A DNA stretch of 64,000 nucleotides, from the NCBI GenBank assembly GCA_026025075.1, contig JAPEUI010000016.1:1-64000 (forward strand), in the 5' to 3' direction. The notes beneath the pieces were generated by a model that was not told where the DNA came from, did no database searches, and saw only the letters and a list, made by a program, of their open reading frames with translations. The first letter of the stretch is position 1. Every line of letters starts with the position of its first letter. Shown here piece after piece: positions 1 through 22,750 of this stretch. The stretch is from Vezdaea acicularis. Its lineage: Eukaryota. A program made the translations under genes and the position numbers.

Positions 1-3000
1 GAGAGATCTGCTCATCTCGGGTTGAGTTCACTTACAACCTGCAACGGTCAAAGAGGCCGGGGTCAGCCATCGATTCAACGGAGAGATCTGCTCAGCTCGG
101 GTCAAGCTCACTTACTTCCTACAACGGGCAAAAAGGCCGGGGTCAGCCATCGATTCAATGGAGAGATCTGCTCAGCTCGGGTCGAGTTCACTTACAACCT
201 GCAACGGTCAAAGAGGCCGGGGTCAGCCATCGATTCAACGAGAGATCTGCTCAGCTTGGGTCGAGTTTACTTACAAACTGCAACGGTCAAAGAGGCCGGG
301 GTCAGCCATCGATTCAATGGAGAGATCTGCTCATCTCGGGTTGAGTTCACTTACAACCTGCAACGGTCAAAGAGGCCGGGGTCAGCCATCGATTCAACGG
401 AGAGATCTGCTCAGCTCGGGTCAAGCTCACTTACTTCCTACAACGGTCAAAGAAGCCGGGGTTAGCCATCGATTCAACAGAGAGATCTGCTCAGCTCGGG
501 TCGAATTCACTTACAACCTGCAACGGTCAAAGAGGCCGGGTTAGCCATCGATTCAATGGAGAGATCTGCTCAGCTCGGGTCGAGTTCACTTACTCTCTGC
601 AACGGTCAAAGAGGCCGGCGTCAGCCATCGACTCAACGGAGAGATCTGCTCAGCTCGGGTCGAGTTCACTTACTCTCTGCAACGGTCAAAGAGGCCAGCG
701 TCAGCCATCGATTCAGTAGAGAGATCTGCTCAGCTCGGTTTGAGTTCACTTACTTCCTACAACGGTCAAAGAAGCCGGGGTTAGCCATCAATTCAACAGA
801 GAGATCTGCTCAGCTCGGGTCGAGTTCACTTACAACCTGCAACGGTCAAAGAAGCCGACGTCAGCCATCGATTCAACAGAGAGATCCGCTCAGCTCGGGT
901 CGAGTTTACTTACTTCCTACAACAGGCAAAAAGGCCGGCGTCAGCCATCGATTTAACAGAGAGATCTACTCAGAGAGATCTGCTCAGCTCGGGTCGATTT
1001 CACTTACTCTCTGCAACGGTCAAAGAAGCTAGCGTTAGCTAACGATTCAACAGAGAGATCTGCTTAGCTCGGGTCAAGTTCACTTACTCTCTGCAGTGGT
1101 CAAAAAGGCCGGAGTCAGCCATCGATTCAACGCAGAGATCTGCTCAGCTCGGGTCGGGTTCACTTACGTCCTGCAACAGTCAAAGAGGTCGGCGTCAGCC
1201 ATCGATTCAACAGAGAGATCTGCTCAGCTCGAGTCGAGTTTACTTACAGGCTGCAACGGTCGAAGAGGCCGGGGTCAGCCATCAATTCAACGGAGAGATC
1301 AGCTCGGGTCGAGTTCACTTACAAGCTACAACGGTCAAAGAGGCCGGGGTCAGCCATCGACTCAACAGAGAGATCTGCTCTGCTCGGGTCGAGTCCACTT
1401 ACATCCTGCAACGGTCAAAGAGGCCGGCGTCAGTCATCGATTCAATAGAGAGATCTGCTCAGAGAGATCTGCTCAGCTCGGGTCGAGTTCACTTACATCC
1501 TGCAACGGTCAAAGAGGCCGGGGTCAGCCATCAGTTCAACAAAGAGATCTGCTCATCTCGGGTCGAGTTCACTTACAAGCTGCAATAGCCAAAGATGCCG
1601 GCGTCAGCCATCGATTCAACACAGAGATCTGCTCAGCTCGGGCTGAGTTCACTTACAATCTGCAACGGTCAAACAGGCCGGCGTTAGCTATTAATTCAAC
1701 AGAGAGATCTGCTCATCTCGAGTTGAGTTCACTTACAAACTACAAAAGTCAAAGAGGCCGGCATCAGCCACCAATTCAACAGAAAGATCTGCTCAGCTCG
1801 GGTCAAGTTCACTTACAAGCTACAATAGCCAAAGATGCCGGCGTCAGCCATCGATTCAACGCAGAGATCTGCTCAGCTCGGGCTGAGTTCACTTACAATC
1901 TGCAACGGTCAAAGAGGCCGGCGTCAGCCATCGACTCAACAGAGAGATCTGCTCAGAGAGATCTGCTCATCTCGGGTCGAGTTCACTTACAACCTACAAT
2001 AGTCAAAGAGGCCGGGGTCAGCCATCGATTCAATGGAGAGATCTGCTCATCTCGGGTCGAGTTCACTTACTTTCTGCAACGGTCAAAGAGGTCTGCGTCA
2101 GCCATCGATTCCACGCAGAGATCTGCTCAGCTCGGGTCGTGTTCACTTACTGGCTGCAACGGTCAAACAGGCCGGCGTTAGCTATTAATTTAACAGAGAG
2201 ATCTGCTCATCTCGAGTTGAGTTCACTTACAAACTACAAAAGTCAAAGAAGCCAGCGTTAGCTAACGATTCAACAGAGATATCTGCTCAGCTCGGGCCGA
2301 GTTCACTTACATCCTACAACGGGTAAAAAGGCCGGGGTCAGCCATCGATTCAACGGAGAGATTTGCTCAGCTCGGGTCAAGTTCACTTACCAGCTACAAT
2401 AGTCAAAGAGGCCGGGGTCAGCCATCGATTCAACAGAGAGATCTGCTCAGCTCGGGTCGAGTTCACTTACCAGCTACAATAGTCAAAGAGGCCGGGGTCA
2501 GCCATTGATTCAACAGAGAGATCTGCTCAGCTCGGGTCGAGTTCACTTACCAGCTACAATAGTCAAAGAGGCCGGGGTCAGCCATCAATTCAATGGAGAG
2601 ATCCGCTCAGCTCGGGTCGAATTCACTTACCAGCTACAATAGTCAAAGAGGCCGGGGTCAGCCATCGATTCAACAGAGAGATCTGATCATCTTGGATCAA
2701 GTTCACTTACTTTCTGCAACGGTCAAAGAGGCCGGGGTCAGCCATCGATTCAACAGAGAGATCTGCTCAGCTCGGATCGAGTTCACTTACATTCTGCAAC
2801 GGTCAAAGAGGCTGGCGTTAGCAATCGATTCAACAGAGAGATCTGCTCAGCTCGGGTCGAGTTCACTTACACCCTGGAAAGGTCAAAGAGGCCGGGGTCA
2901 GCCATCGATTCAACAGAGAGGTCTACTTAGCTCGGGTCGAGTTTACTTGCATCCTGCAACGGTCAAAGAGGCTAGCGTCAGCTATTAATCAAACAGAGAG

Positions 3001-4143
3001 ATCTGCTTAGCTCGGGTCGAGTTTACTTACATACTGCAACGGTCAAAGAGGTCGGCGTCAGCCATCGATTCAACAGAGAGATCTACTCAGCCAGGGTTGA
3101 GTTTACTGACAAGCTGCAATGGTCAAAGAGGCCAGCGTCAGCCATCGATTCAACGCAGAGGTCTGCTCAGCTCGGGTCGAGTTCACTTACAAACTGCAAT
3201 AGTCAAAGAGGCCGGGGTCAGCCATCGATTCAATGGAGAGATCTACTCAGCTTGGGTCGAGTTCACTTACTCTCTGCAACGGTAAAGGCTAGCGTCAGCT
3301 ATCGATTCAACAGAGAGATCCGCTCAGCCAAGGTTAAGTTCACTTACTCCCTGCAACGGTCAAAGAGGCCGGCGTCAGCCATCGATTCAACGGAGAGATC
3401 TGCTCAGCTAGGTTCGAGTTCACTTACAGGCTGCAACAGTCAAACAGGCCGGTGTTAGCTATTAATTCAACAGAGATCTGCTCATCTCGGGTCAAGTTCA
3501 CTTACAAGCTACAATAGTCAAAGAGGCCGGGGTCAGCCATCGATTCAACAGAGAGATCTGCTCAGCTCGGGTCGAGTTCACTTACTCTCTGCAACGGTAA
3601 AGGCTAGCGTCAGCTATCGATTCAACAGAGAGATCCGCTCAGCCAAGGTTAAGTTCACTTACTCCCTGCAACGGTCAAAGAGGTCGGCGTCAGCCATCGA
3701 TTCAACAGAGAGATCCGCTCAGCTCGGGTCGAGTTCACTTACTTCCTGCAACGGTCAAAGAGGCTAGCGTTAGCTATCGATTCAACGGAGAGATCTGCTC
3801 AGCTCGGGTCGAGTTCACTTACTTCCTGCAACAGTCAAAGAGGTCGGCGTTAGCTATCGATTCAACAGAGAAATCTGCTTAGCTTGAGTTGAGTCCACTT
3901 ACTTCCTACAATAGTCAAAGAGGCCGGCGTCAGCCATCGATTCAACAGAGAGATCTGTGCAGCCAGGTTCAAGTTTCACTTACATACTACAACAGTCAAA
4001 GAGGCCGGCGTCAGCCATCGATTCAACAAAGAGATCTGCGCAGCCAAGTTCATGCTCACTTACATACTGCAACGGTCAAAGAGGCCGGGGTCAGCCATCG
4101 ATTCAACGAAGAGATCTGCTCAGCTCGGGCCAGTTCCACTCAC
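1..4143 (-). repeat. Tandem array of ~80-bp units, each a ~77-nt spliceosomal intron plus a 3-nt microexon (51 microexons visible)
   Basis: Minus-strand consensus GTAAGTGAACTCGACCCGAGCTGAGCAGATCTCTCNGTTGAATCGATGGCTGACCCCGGCCTCTTTGACCGTTGCAG|NNN. The only hypervariable position is the triplet between YAG and the next GT. Plus-strand triplets start at 36, 116, 196, 275, ... 3903, 3984, 4064. Confidence 0.93.
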
Positions 4144-7100
4144 GATGTGCCAATACAAGTAGTTCACTTTGGCGCCCTCCGCTAGCAGTAGCTTGATGAC
4201 CGCCTCGGACCCGTTGTCAATCGCCGCAGCTAACGGTGGGCCATCACCGCAATCTATCATTTCGATATCGGCTCCACTCTCCAGTAGCAGTAACATCACC
4301 GCTTCGTGCCCGTTCCCGGCTGCAATATGCAGTGCCGTCCAATCACCTTCAGCTTTCGCATCGACGTCTGCATCGTGCTCTAGCAGTTGCCGCACCACTG
4401 CTTCATGCCCTTTTTCAGCCGCCAAGTGCAGCGCCGTCTTCTTCTCACCATCCCTCCAGTTAACATTGGCTCCGGCATCAAGCATCAATTTAACTAGTGC
4501 CTCCTCGCCCATTTCAGAGGCCAAATTAAGGGCTGAAGATCTCTCGAAATCGAACGAGAGTTCCGTAAAAAGTCCTTCACCTTTAAGCCAGTCGTTCAAG
4601 GCAGATGACAAAACCTTATCAGACGGATCTTCCTTGTGGCCCAGTGCCACTCTGATAGATAAGGTTAAAGCAGTTCCATGGAGTTCGGCAAGGAGTACAG
4701 TCAGCTGATCCTTATCACAGCATGATGTTATCGCATGGTGCCACCAATTATTGCATGCATACAGAAGAAGAGGGTATGGCTTCAAGCCAGATTCTTCAGA
4801 TGCTTTCGTGTCATAGTAATGAATGTAAGCAAGACAACTTCTAAGGATAAACCATTGGCCGTCAGACTCACGAAGTCGAAACTTCGAATCGACGCTATCG
4901 CACATTAGATACTGCTTTACGGAGAAATGGGCAAAGGTTATGGCTCTATCTTGGTCAGCAGTGCTGATGGCCTCATCCTCTAAGTGAGATTGATCGTCTA
5001 TGCCAGATACTGTGACGAGTCCGGATAAGATGTCTCGAATGTCCCGCGGATCTTGAAACCTATCTTTAGGATCGAATGATACGGAACTGTCTTTAGCATC
5101 CTGTGATGGGTCGCTTGTGTCGAAAATAGCAGCTTCAGCAGCTTCGCTGAGTTTAAGGGGTCTATTTGAAAAAGCCAACCATCTAAGAACGGCGTGTGCT
5201 TCATCTTTGTAGTCAATTCTCTCAATTCGTGACAACATCCGACTGTATGTCTCGTACAAGTCCCTCGGTAGCTGATTTAGGGCCTTCTCGACATCCCGCT
5301 CTCTCTTTTTCCGCCTAAGTGTGCCAAGCTGGCACCCGACCCACCGGAACACACCATCTGCCTTTTCTGTAAGGGTTTCAATCACTTTCTTCTGCAGTCC
5401 AGGGGACCATTTCTGAAAGTCTTTAGGCACGCAGTTTTGAAGGTGTCTTCTGATGTCGTCGTTGACTCGCGACTTCTGGATTGGAACTTTGCATATCTTG
5501 CTCGGACTTTTGCTGAGTGCACTCTCAATATCCTCCTCTAGTCTGCTTGTAATCAAAATGTGCGTATTGCTTCCTGCCCTGCAAGAAAGCTCCGCTAAGA
5601 ATTTAACAACCTCTTTTCGATCCTCCTGTAACGGGCACTCATCCAGAGCGTCGACGACGATATAAGTCTCTTCGGATTCTGTCAGGACGCCTAGGAATGT
5701 TTCATTCAGGTCTTCGATCTTCGGGTCGCGTGCCGGCTGATATTTATTATATAAATCTCGAAAAGCTCTTGGAAGATGGTAGCGGCCAGGTTCCTGTGAA
5801 TCTTCACGAACGAGACTACGAACTAATTGAATCAGGAGAGAATACGTAAGACTTCGAACATCTTGTCGTTCATTTCTTCGAAAGGAGAAGTAGAAGAAGG
5901 CCAGAACTCCCAATTTTTGCCGCTCGATCTCGTCGTTAATAGTCGAGCTCAAAACTGTCTTGCCGCACCCAGCTGCGCAACGAGGAATTTAGCGAAGGAT
6001 GGGGCTGATGAGAGATAAAACATACCTTTGCCACAAAGCCACAAGAATGACCGAGGTTGCTTCTTCCACACTTCAAACTCTTCTCTAAGAAACCAGGTGC
6101 CTGTCGACTCGGTAGTACGGTTCTTTCGAGCCTCATTATGATATTCCAATGGATCAACATATGCCAGCCATTTGAGGTGGTTATCTTTGGATGTTGCGTC
6201 GAGTGGTGGCACTGCTCAAGAAAACACGAAATAAGAATCGTTATGTTTATATCTGAAATGAGAACTTCTACGTACAGTTATTAGGAGCACGAGCGGCAAC
6301 AAAGGCGTCGATGGTCTGTTTTATTTGAGGAACTCCTAAGTAGTATTCTGTCGCTGCCTCAATCTTATCGATCTTATGTTCATCCAAGCCAACCCCTCCT
6401 AAGCCTTGCTGGACATTGTATCGGAAGTAGCGGCCGCCGACGCCTCGATCTTTATGATTTTTGAAGAATCTCTTCTCGGTTTCCTCAGTTTCCGTCGAGA
6501 TAGCTTTGAGTGTCTCGACCACCTCCTTCAGGTTATCTCCAAAATCTTTCAAGTCGGGAACTCCCGTCCCGATGCTCACAAGACTCTGGATTCTAGGTCT
6601 AGCATCTGGCCAGATAGACTCTGCTTCTTCGAGCACTACTTCCACGGGATTATTGAAGCCCGTCGCTCCATCAACAAATTTTTGCCTGCCAATCTCGATC
6701 GGATCAAAGAACATAGCGGCTGCAGAGGTGGCACGAGCTGCTTGCCAGATAGTACACTCCGAGCTAGCCAAAGTATCGATCGCATCATCAGTGCTGTAGG
6801 TGCGGAGCCGTACAGGTGTGTTTAATGTTTTGGTGAAGGCACACACAAATCTGTAAGGAGAAATATTCAGTTTCGAATAGGAACGGAAAATTATGTCATA
6901 TTAATAGATATGCTGAACCTACACTTTGCAAGGTGCATTGGAGTTCCTCAACTTCGCCTCGGCATCGCCTTCCTGGGACTTGACAATATTTCTAATCTCA
7001 GAGGCGAGAGAGTCTGAAGAGTACGTTCCTTCAACCTTCAATATATCTTTTGCCTTCCCAAAGAAGTTTCCTTTTACCCTCTTGGGCTGGAATGCCGCCG

Positions 7101-7499
7101 ATGACAGCTCAATGTATTTGTTGATGCAAGTATCGACGTCCATTTGGAGCCGACCCAACATGATAGCGATAAGCCTGAAATTGGAAGGGTAAGCCATTTA
7201 TTTTTATATTTATCATTTTTTTCCTTGGTATATCAACGACAAGATGGGAAGCTCACCCTCCAGTGCTTGTCCCGCCGATTAAATCGAAATACTCGCAGGG
7301 CTTTGGGGGATTTTGCGGTCTTACTCTCTTCATCAGGTGTTTGAGAATGATAAGAGAAGAAAGCCCACGTATACCGCCTCCATCTGTAGTGAACAGATTA
7401 GCGAGAGTTACCAAATCAATACTGATTGCTCGGCATACCTAACGAGAGAAGTTTCAGTGAAGAAGGAGTAGCAGTCGGAGCAGGATTTGGGGACGCCAT
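1..7499 (-). CDS. Fungal NLR-like STAND protein: patatin-like phospholipase - NACHT - ankyrin repeats, continuing through a microexon array (3' end outside window)
   Basis: Exons reconstructed by hand: 7499-7439, 7383-7257, 7174-6923, 6850-6276, 6211-6026, 5972-4144, all joined by GT-AG introns in frame. Patatin motifs: LSLDGGGIRG, FDLIGGTSTGG, FVDGA. NACHT Walker A GKAGCGKT is formed across the 6026/5972 junction; Walker B is YIVVDALDEC. Four ankyrin repeats follow (SALNLAS, TALHLAAEKGH, TALHIAAGNGH, PPLAAAIDNGS). A GTGAGT donor at 4143 follows ...VNYLYWHI. Confidence 0.93.
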
Positions 7500-9428: not shown

Positions 9429-10755
9429 GACGTCCGATTTTGATGTAGTTTCGTAAGCAGAGGTTTCAAATGATAATGACTTGACTTGACTTGACTTGTT
9501 TCATACGCCGCAGGTGCCTCGCGGCCTGCTTGGCTAGCTCGCTGACTAATATACACGCGGCCTGTTGGTAGCGCAGGCTATCTGCGCCTGTTTCTAGGTA
9601 CTAAACTGGATGGGGAACCGCCATAGTAATTAGGCGAGAGCTCTTGAGAGCGCAGGTATCTGTAGAACAGTAGACGATAGATAATATACACCATCACTGC
9701 TTCATGAGATATATGATATTCGTGATAATCCTATCGAAGACCACATCTCGCTAGTCTGATCTGCGCTATTTGCAGCACCGGGTCGTCGCGCGACGGCCCT
9801 TTTCCCATCCAACGACTCATTCTGAGCCTATATTATTGTTTTCTTGCGGCTTTCCATTAGCTTTTTAAAATGCTCTCATTTGATAGGTGATTAGCAGAGT
9901 GTGACCGTCCTAATCTTGTCATTCGTCCTTATCTAGCGCAATTACAGAAGTGTTGCTGGTCAGGATATTGGCGTAGCAGCAGCTCATCTGTCAGGATGCA
10001 CATAGAGCGAGTCATATGGATATGGTGACAAAGAGATTAAAGCTATCGAAAGATAATATACATGGAATGAAGATGAAAAGGGATGCCGAGGCGCCAAGAC
10101 CCTAGGCTGAATCGAGCCAAGTGTAGAGCAGACCACAACACGATCGTGACACGTTCCCTTTTAAATTTGCTTTCTTCAGCCATCTCTGGAGCAGCCGGAT
10201 CAGGCTGTGCGTAGGAACAGATAGGATTAGACATAGGTAGGGTGAGCAAGAGAGTGCTCATCACCTTGGTGGGGTGTCACGTCACCCCTGCTCACCTCAA
10301 GGATAGCTAAAAGCGGCAACACCTGCGCGACGTCCAGCGGGGTACATTTCTGATGTCCTGTCCTGCCAAGCCTGCTATCTAGCACAGCTCCGCCGCTCCT
10401 GATTTTTTAAGGTATGGTGCCCTGGGCCGCCCCAGGAGGCGGCGCAGTGAGGCTGAGAACACGAACCATCATAGACACCTTGTCGTTGCGCATCAGGACG
10501 TTGTCAAGTACAGCCTTGATTGACAACGCCTAAATGGCCGTGCCGTGTAATCATGGCGGGCGCCCTGCTACGGTAGCAGCTGCATTCGGATCAGAATGCC
10601 CTGATTTGCCAGCCTTGTCGATGCCGGTGAGCAATCATGCAGTAGGCCCCCACGCAAGATGAGGCAGTTTGCTCGTTGGGAGTATAAAAACGCTTTGTAC
10701 AGCGCTTCGTCAAAAGTCTTGTGGCTCTGTATTTTCCTCACGCCCACAAGGAAGC

Positions 10756-17793: not shown

Positions 17794-18536
17794 CGACGAG
17801 TGGGCTCATTCTAGGTATAGCAGATAGCTCACCCGGGTGTCCAAGTCTCCAATGATTAATACAGCTTCATTCGTTGACCTTGAAGACTCCGTAATGACGA
17901 GCTTATGAAGTTTCGATACTCCAATCTTAAGGCACCGCACCGTCCAGTACCAGGAGGTTACAAGGTCAATGAAAAAGAAAAAAAATACATAAACCACCGA
18001 GGAGTTAGACCTCACGGGCGAACTAATTCAAGTAGTAGAGAGCAACATGCATGTGACTCAACCGCCAATCAACCTTTATTTACATTGTTGCGCCGTTCCA
18101 GCATCCAATAATATAGCTAGAAATGTCTACGCGGAACATTGCTATGCATCGCTCTGCTATGGCCAATACTGCTTCATCCCACGAGTAGCTGTGTATGAGC
18201 TGGCACGTGATCAGGTTTTGGACAGCAGGCATTGAATACTCGTACAGAAGAAATGAAGGGCAACTGAAGCCGGTTCAACGCAGGCAATTCAGGCTCCCAC
18301 CTGCTGCGCGCCCTGCACCGCCCCATAGATCCCTTGGTGCTCCCTTGGTGCTCTCTCGGTGCTCCCCCCTGCTCCCTCAGTGCTCCCTTTTGCTTCCTTG
18401 CTGCTCCCTCTAAAGCTGCCCTGCTCCCTTTCCCGAATCAAAACGGCAATCGCTAATTCTAAGTTCGGGGTGTATATAATATATATATATATGCTAGAAT
18501 ATAATATGAGATATAATCTATTAAAATATATTATTC

Positions 18537-22489: not shown

Positions 22490-22750
22490 ACAACTGTTTA
22501 AACGACGACTGTCATGATGACGACAACTGTAATAGTAACTGACAACTTTCTTCGACTAGAATTGTCTAGATGACAAGAACTGTCGAAATAGCGTTAACTG
22601 TCTGGACGAGAACTGTCGGGCGAGGAGAACTGTCGGGCGAGGAGAACTGTCGGGCAAAGAGATATGTCTGGGCAAGATGATCTGTCTGGGCGAGGGGATC
22701 TGTCGGGCAGAGGAGAAATTGTCTAGGTGAGGAGAACTGTCTGAACGAGA
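22490..22750 (+). repeat. Degenerate ~17-bp tandem repeats (GAGAACTGTCGGGCGAG-like), likely transposon subterminal repeats
   Basis: About a dozen copies with a (A/T)CTGTC core, e.g. GAGAACTGTCGGGCGAG in tandem at ~22608-22655. Confidence 0.65.

Follow-up and report, generated by a model that had tools for sequence, protein, structure and literature searches.

The start of contig JAPEUI010000016.1 of Vezdaea acicularis (assembly GCA_026025075.1) raises a simple question: what is an array of intron-like units, placed exactly three nucleotides (nt) apart, doing at the end of a gene? We analysed positions 1 to 64,000 of the forward strand, and this whole stretch is called the window below; the array fills its first 4,143 nt. 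Our answer, predicted from the sequence with a probability of roughly 75%, is that the units are real introns and the spacers between them one-codon exons of an NLR-type gene. The array would then be a continuation of the coding region of a patatin-NACHT-ankyrin gene, in which each 77-nt body would be a U2-type spliceosomal intron and each 3-nt spacer a phase-0 exon of one codon.

Tandem Repeats Finder reports a single array at 1-4136 with a period of 80 and 51.4 copies. Read on the minus strand, each unit consists of a 77-nt intron-like body (GTAAGT...CTRAC...YAG), a 3-nt spacer and then the next GTAAGT. The features of the array, the variants being taken from the unit alignment, are as follows.

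1..4143, minus strand: tandem array of 51 complete 80-nt-type units and a cut unit at 1-35; it continues past the window.
4138..4143, minus strand: first donor, GTGAGT, at a codon boundary (phase 0) after ...YLYWHI of the last ankyrin repeat.
2945..2950, minus strand: variant donor GCAAGT (GC-AG type).
3105..3110, minus strand: variant donor GTCAGT.
1763..1767, minus strand: the sole branch-motif variant, CTGAT, which is still CTRAY.

The donor is GTAAGT in 48 of the 51 units, and GTGAGT, GTCAGT and GCAAGT occur once each, i.e. the donors are GTRAGT-like or GC as in U2-type introns. All units end in AG (CAG in 34, TAG in 17), which is the YAG of short U2-type fungal introns. The branch motif is CTGAC in 39 units, CTAAC in 11 and CTGAT in one, all of them CTRAY, with the branch A 24 alignment columns upstream of the acceptor G. 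The spacer between AG and the next GT is 3 nt in 51/51 units. Exact 80-nt length is kept in 41 units; the remaining ten carry indels in the body (75, 77, 77, 78, 79, 79, 81, 94, 94 and 94 nt, with three copies of a 14-nt internal duplication among these bodies), and neither the spacer nor the signals next to it have an indel in any of the 51 units. A first-pass annotation of this DNA, made from the letters alone, had described constant CAG/TAG acceptors, a branch site that is nearly always CTGAC or CTAAC, an exon length of always 3 nt and the two deviant internal donors, and our alignment agrees with it on every one of these points, including the positions of GCAAGT and GTCAGT. It also took the variant donors to be functional, which is plausible: GC-AG, GTGAGT and GTCAGT, like CTRAY and YAG, fit the known functional consensus.

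The same annotation had claimed that the signals are selectively kept across the array, by purifying selection for splicing and contrary to what a neutral minisatellite would show, and had proposed a comparison of per-column variability. We made this comparison on 51 aligned units with 12 critical columns (donor positions 1-6; branch C, T, A and C; acceptor A and G). There are four minor letters in total over the critical columns, compared with a mean of 4.44 per other body column, and a sum this low has P=1.5e-5 in 200,000 random draws of 12 body columns. The claim of selection thus gains support, and the donor, branch and acceptor columns are indeed significantly less variable than the rest.

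An objection to such a test is mutation bias. The array could be a neutral intron-derived satellite, located in the 3' untranslated region or downstream of a gene that ends at 4120-4122, with an intron-like look that is inherited and kept by youth and mutation bias. Public annotation does stop the protein at 4120-4122. Moreover, changes in the bodies are mostly C-to-T or G-to-A at CpG and CpA/TpG (8.3 minor letters per such column versus 2.8 elsewhere), and GTAAGT holds no such site, so that part of its constancy is expected. Because these transitions dominate the variation of the bodies, we restricted the draw to "cold" columns outside CpG/CpA contexts, and the signals are less variable among these columns too (P=4.8e-4). 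In a second alignment, based on a hidden Markov model (HMM) whose profile does not require intact signals, 0/20,000 permutations were as low as the observed value. Variation in the array is not what mutation alone dictates: signal columns are depleted and spacer columns are in excess. It is important to note that the bodies differ by 13% per site, which means that the array is not very young. We regard a neutral satellite as very improbable. The conserved signals support the view that the units are spliced now or were spliced recently; they do not indicate the role of the product.

The spacers behave in the opposite way to the signals. No other column varies as much as the three of the spacer (1.89, 1.74 and 1.40 bits, the next highest column having 1.23), where changes are mostly transversions, compared with mostly transitions in the bodies. 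Units differ from each other by 0.132 per site in the bodies and by 0.662 per site in the spacers. Some units with identical 77-nt bodies have unrelated spacers, and the spacer difference is 0.63-0.73 per site even where bodies differ by 3-6%. Altogether there are 16 distinct spacer triplets in the window array and none of them is a stop. At a larger scale the array contains duplicated blocks. Periods 160 and 240 outscore 80 in Tandem Repeats Finder, and unit pairs about 319 nt apart (others 240 or 315 nt) are identical or almost so in their bodies and share the spacers on either side.

If spacers are codons, arrays of this kind should avoid stops in one frame, and analogous arrays in metagenomes allow this to be examined. 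Metagenome contigs were scanned in a sequence-blind way, with only three GTAAGT, two YAG, the 3-nt gaps and 55-80-nt bodies fixed. At least 113 stretches were obtained, and all array counts below are among these. Arrays were kept by a criterion fixed in advance, namely five or more chained junctions and no single spacer accounting for over half of the total, and 47 arrays passed. Two of them, L049 and L097, are AT-rich repeats in which the "spacers" are mostly TAA or TGA; they were set aside, which leaves 45 arrays. The spacers of these arrays behave as codons. In-frame stops are found in 3 of 663 spacers against 39.7 expected from position-specific composition (Poisson P=6e-14), and a uniform model predicts 31.1. 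When spacer types are counted once per array, there are 3 stops in 354 with 16.6 expected (P=6e-5). When the spacers are joined in all 47 arrays, 24 stops fall in frame +1 and 75 in frame +2, and our hand estimate from pooled base composition is about 29 and about 84; hence there is no depletion in these frames. C is rare at the third spacer position (16 of the 663 spacers).

The other properties of the window array recur as well. Bodies alike with differing spacers are seen in every array, and phase 0 in nearly all. We re-aligned the 22 arrays with enough units without requiring the signals and after dropping the first three perfect units, which were a demand of the scan pattern. Signals are less variable than bodies in 21/22 of these arrays, which again favours selection for splicing, and P<0.05 is reached in 16/22 (the six without significance are L010, L024, L053, L067, L080 and L101). 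Spacers are the most variable columns in 22/22. Body length is off the modal value in 233 of 551 single units, and a gap or insertion at the junction is found in only 13 of 399. L045 appears as an old array, with bodies drifted to 57-86 nt and the 3-nt spacing retained. Units related to those of the window are present at six loci (L065, L073, L052, L038, L021 and L028). As a control, the same pattern was collected from prokaryote genomes (L112-L233), where the "spacer" is constant (GGA, TGA, AAG) and the bodies are variable. Many of these control arrays are in cyanobacteria, with units containing YAG-GGA-GTAAGT, and they look like CRISPR arrays. Their signature is the opposite of that of the eukaryote-like arrays.

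These results bear also on the idea that the array is a single composite intron, i.e. a terminal intron that has expanded as a minisatellite, with non-coding spacers that are mostly skipped when the first donor is joined to the last acceptor or when arbitrary pairs are used. Any donor can stand in for another, as can any acceptor, and the frame survives whichever two are paired. The recent block duplications (unit pairs about 319 nt apart) are minisatellite-like dynamics, and the scores of periods 160 and 240 above that of 80 fit the same picture. What a composite intron does not explain is why internal signals are protected, why the spacing is exactly 3 nt despite indels in the bodies and why the spacers of like arrays avoid stops in one frame only. 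We find a composite intron improbable.

The gene that runs into the array is on the same strand. Its parts are as follows.

4144..5988, minus strand: last ordinary exon, with NACHT/NPHP3_N NTPase, winged-helix region and ankyrin repeats (open reading frame and Pfam).
5989..7499, minus strand: upstream exons of the same gene, with a patatin-like phospholipase at 6268-6900 and the start codon at 7497-7499.
4120..4122, minus strand: read-through stop that is reached only with the first unit unspliced; the public annotation ends ...WHIVSGTGPS.

Pfam matches are Patatin (4.5e-09), NPHP3_N (7.1e-27), NACHT (8.5e-07) and Ank (4.5e-23). A NACHT-type NTPase, an N-terminal domain of effector type and C-terminal ankyrin repeats are thus combined in one gene, as in fungal NLRs. 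The protein is 100% identical to P0001, a protein of 1017 residues annotated in a Vezdaea acicularis metagenome-assembled genome. The NACHT-ankyrin open reading frame (4120-5988, minus strand) meets the first donor at a codon boundary in phase 0 after ...NYLYWHI, and the annotated protein runs seven codons further into the first unit to the stop at 4120-4122. Comparison of the genomic sequence with P0001 gives five ordinary introns of 55, 82, 72, 64 and 53 nt, with donors GTATGC, GTGAGC, GTAGGT, GTACGT and GTATGT, and the 77-nt array body falls within their range of 53-82 nt.

The boundary recurs in some homologous proteins. In twelve of 74 homologues (eleven by pattern and P0010 by eye) the last residues, at the homologous place, are plainly a homologous first intron in read-through translation; VSDLHPDPSY is one such ending. 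In the Geoglossum simile protein the translation passes through two units, and this tail can be aligned to the translated array of the window (E=8e-11), 13 of its residues, WLTPASLAIAACK, being identical to window 1572-1610. The intron-tailed homologues are only 52-55% identical to the window protein, and therefore the intron is better conserved than the surrounding exon. The same intron at the same codon boundary in homologues of other genera is not explained by a neutral satellite. P0002 is a different case. This metagenome protein is 69% identical and has no intron at that place; after ...CLYRLI comes ESFLYYHHDHDCCRYPFPYDDHYFHSKLCVYPPDRDGDDHFYYYYFPNDLRRDVSETRPKLSRSLY, of which the final 13 residues are translated unit and the 54 preceding ones form a stretch rich in Y, H, D, F and P. 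The composition of the 54 residues is typical of joined spacers in other arrays. The simplest reading is that P0002 may be a copy in which spliced sequence has taken the place of the array's first part.

Short DNA contigs of relatives (three runs) match parts of the host gene and of the array. In contigs of a relative from the metagenome run X3 the end of the ankyrin exon is joined to an array unit with eight other letters between them (window 4153/515), and another X3 contig connects an array unit with the beginning of the last ankyrin repeat (window 4225/1119). These joins hint that arrays might be located between successive ankyrin repeats.

Fourteen metagenome arrays have at least 1 kb of upstream sequence, and in 5/14 there is NLR-type evidence upstream on the same strand.

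L027 upstream, same strand: DUF676, NPHP3_N (5.3e-42), winged helix and Ank.
L044 upstream, same strand: NPHP3_N (1.3e-25); a 526-codon open reading frame enters the first donor in phase 0.
L065 upstream, same strand: winged helix (5.2e-9).
L026 upstream, same strand: Ank (2.4e-10).
L069 upstream, same strand: ankyrin by tblastn only.

Evidence on the phase of the flanks is confined to four clear cases (L044, L016, L067 and L038), the ends of arrays being poorly defined elsewhere. The short arrays L021 and L038 are outside the set of 14 and are homologous to the array of the window. In L021 the first intron comes after ...GAKIDFRYKL, which is the place homologous to ...GAKVNYLYWHI of the window. 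L038 has units 78% identical to those of the window, and behind its last intron comes, in phase 0, TPLSRAA..., which belongs to an ankyrin repeat (Pfam Ank 4.6e-11). Because the ankyrin repeat follows in phase 0, the array of L038 sits in the loop before the TPLH motif of that repeat. An ankyrin repeat in frame behind an array is a further observation that a neutral satellite does not explain. By analogy with L038, the window's gene probably continues beyond the window, likely into a further ankyrin repeat.

Two arrays are informative because of the residues that they would encode. L016 begins with ATG AAA, intron, GAC, intron, CCT, then has codons for A, L, P, T and V, and enters a 125-codon open reading frame in phase 0. 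L070 (1-2997) has 17% G+C and units of 83-110 nt, and no residues other than I, L, V, F, M and T are encoded by its spacers; a protein-kinase domain (Pkinase 2.1e-26) lies about 0.7 kb downstream of this array, and the spacer stretch is membrane-helix-like. The spacers of L070 and L016 look like chosen codons, and such coherent residue types are left unexplained by a composite intron. With regard to its surroundings, the array of L016 is flanked by transposon remnants (4275-5375 and 10245-10625), which are an opposite-strand open reading frame resembling a DDE (Tc1/mariner-type) transposase by eye only and an RNase H match (4.2e-08). The CpG/CpA-TpG transition bias noted in the window bodies is strong in L016 too and resembles repeat-induced point mutation or methylation.

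How could such an array work and how could it arise? Sites 3 nt apart can hardly be occupied at once, and introns would therefore probably be removed stepwise, in successive rounds. The joined spacers would give a stretch of at least 51 residues after the last ankyrin repeat seen in the window, and this product may serve the ankyrin sensor domain as a variable loop or tail. Spaced unit pairs share both bodies and flanking spacers, which argues that the array would grow and shrink by unequal recombination of unit blocks, by one codon per unit. Since one unit equals one codon, changes in length would never break the frame. Selection would discard units that lose a splice signal, alter the 3-nt spacing or gain a stop.

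We suppose that the array arose by duplication of an intron together with a codon. An alternative that concerns only the origin is that a single intron was copied into one codon boundary after another of a pre-existing coding sequence, so that the spacers were never copies of each other. The unrelated spacers next to identical 77-nt bodies, and the spacer difference of 0.63-0.73 where bodies differ by 3-6%, are what such placement would give; L065 likewise combines almost identical bodies with the spacers GGA, GAA, AGA and TTT. The hydrophobic stretch of L070 is hard to build by single-codon duplications, and P0002 has an intron-free stretch at the same place. However, no known mechanism inserts introns at exact 3-nt steps; insertion would be neutral whatever the offset, and still all 51 units here keep 3-nt spacing. 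Multi-unit block duplications copy spacers together with bodies in the window array. The position of the founder intron is common to outgroup homologues, and for this reason P0002 is more likely a loss. We consider intron placement unlikely as the origin, and duplication of intron plus codon is preferred.

Several points weigh against one-codon exons. A 3-nt exon is about as small as spliceosomes are known to handle, and we know of no precedent for 51 consecutive ones. In the window, 0/51 stops compares with 1.5 expected, so the stop argument is weak for this array alone; its joined spacers are open in frame +1 too, and the residues that it encodes, mostly E, R, V, L, F, D and Y, make up a low-complexity stretch with no match to a known domain. 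L049 and L097 were excluded after inspection, and with both kept the stops are 13 of 677 versus 47.8 expected. In the metagenome arrays 63 junctions were unmatched by the pattern, being real breaks together with variant donors, and some of these arrays are clearly decaying. L038 has frame breaks further downstream, the L016 array lies among transposon remnants, and what suggests that P0002 is a processed array is the composition of the protein and nothing else.

Among known systems, introner-like elements are dispersed singly in unrelated genes and have a stable predicted secondary structure. The arrays are like them in being a family of near-identical short spliceosomal introns with related units in several metagenome loci. 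Within the 64-kb window, pattern and HMM searches gave no array unit elsewhere, solitary copies included. Unlike introner-like elements, the unit folds no better than shuffled sequences (minimum free energy -17.3 kcal/mol compared with -15.8 +/- 2.8, z=-0.54). The same fold value and an Rfam search of 1-4400, which gave no match at E<=1, leave a reading of the unit as a small RNA or hairpin unsupported. In fungal NLRs, ANK, TPR and WD40 repeat domains are highly variable through repeat gain, loss and diversifying selection. The window gene belongs to the same class with the same domain, and tandem repetition would give rapid change of length and sequence in the presumed sensor; the difference is that the unit there is a coding repeat of 33-42 residues without introns, and here the introns repeat.

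Intron gain by tandem genomic duplication, in which the duplication supplies a new donor-acceptor pair as in potato RdRp, is similar in that introns arise head-to-tail within a gene and the message stays in frame. The known cases (e.g. PMC4974935) are single events, unlike at least 51 units of one codon each in a class that recurs at many loci. In Zymoseptoria, tandem duplication within a gene makes up less than 1% of recent intron gains (PMC4457414). Single 3-nt microexons are known and are spliced, in animals as well; two 3-nt exons were inferred in lipS genes of the ascomycete Dactylellina haptotyla (PMC5639578). These are also one-codon exons between ordinary GT-AG introns, also in Pezizomycotina; they are isolated and their introns unrelated, whereas here a tandem series has repeated introns. 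Candidate STAND/NLR-type immune receptors of the brown alga Ectocarpus have a variable C-terminal domain made of equal-length phase-0 exons, which are gained, lost and shuffled without breaking the frame (PMC3341825). The 3-nt spacers, 51/51 and entered in phase 0, form an equal-length series of the same type. They do not carry a structural repeat per exon: the Ectocarpus exon is a leucine-rich repeat (LRR) of 24 residues or a tetratricopeptide repeat (TPR) of 42 (PMC3341825), whereas an exon here holds one codon only and it is the intron that is repeated and conserved. A full-text literature search, whose coverage leaves out most subscription journals, turned up no account of introns in tandem with 3-nt exons between them. 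The arrays point to a mode of encoding a variable segment of a protein for which this search gave no earlier report.

If the units are spliced, these genes carry dozens of consecutive one-codon exons, which stretches the known limits of exon size and density, and sites 3 nt apart pose a hard problem for assembly of the spliceosome. Standard gene finders would then miss such exons; the public annotation and at least 11 further homologues end in translated intron. Splicing of the units would also mean a new route to variability of length and sequence in the presumed sensor of fungal NLR-type genes. Finally, it would make the arrays a natural experiment in intron evolution, as alike bodies, differing codons and near-universal phase 0 are not predicted by current models of intron gain. 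A far-reaching extension, which we regard as a long shot, is that arrays of one-codon exons are a general, unnoticed architecture and that combinatorial exon skipping produces a repertoire of sensor-loop peptides from one NLR gene, in addition to fast heritable change by gain and loss of units. The repertoire could be large because the exons are frame-neutral and any donor can pair with any downstream acceptor. If this is true, fungi would have their own equivalent of the way in which animals diversify receptors by splicing.

Some minor observations remain. On the plus strand of the array there is a 380-codon frame at 1039-2181, which we rejected as a by-product of repetition, its Pfam hits including no stretch that would pass by itself. 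Four metagenome arrays (L005, L033, L043 and L045) have AT-rich introns of the polypyrimidine-tract type and upstream open reading frames with similar tails. P-loop GTPase-like matches (Arf/MMR_HSR1, E about 3e-4 to 8e-4) are located within the 1-2 kb upstream of these four; they are below Pfam cut-offs and were not counted as evidence. The similar tails suggest that a second array-carrying gene family may stand behind these loci. Downstream of the array in L033 there are open reading frames for a retrotransposon gag and a zinc knuckle. The window itself contains two more short tandem repeats, at 18330-18409 (periods 11/21) and at 22608-22741 (period 17).

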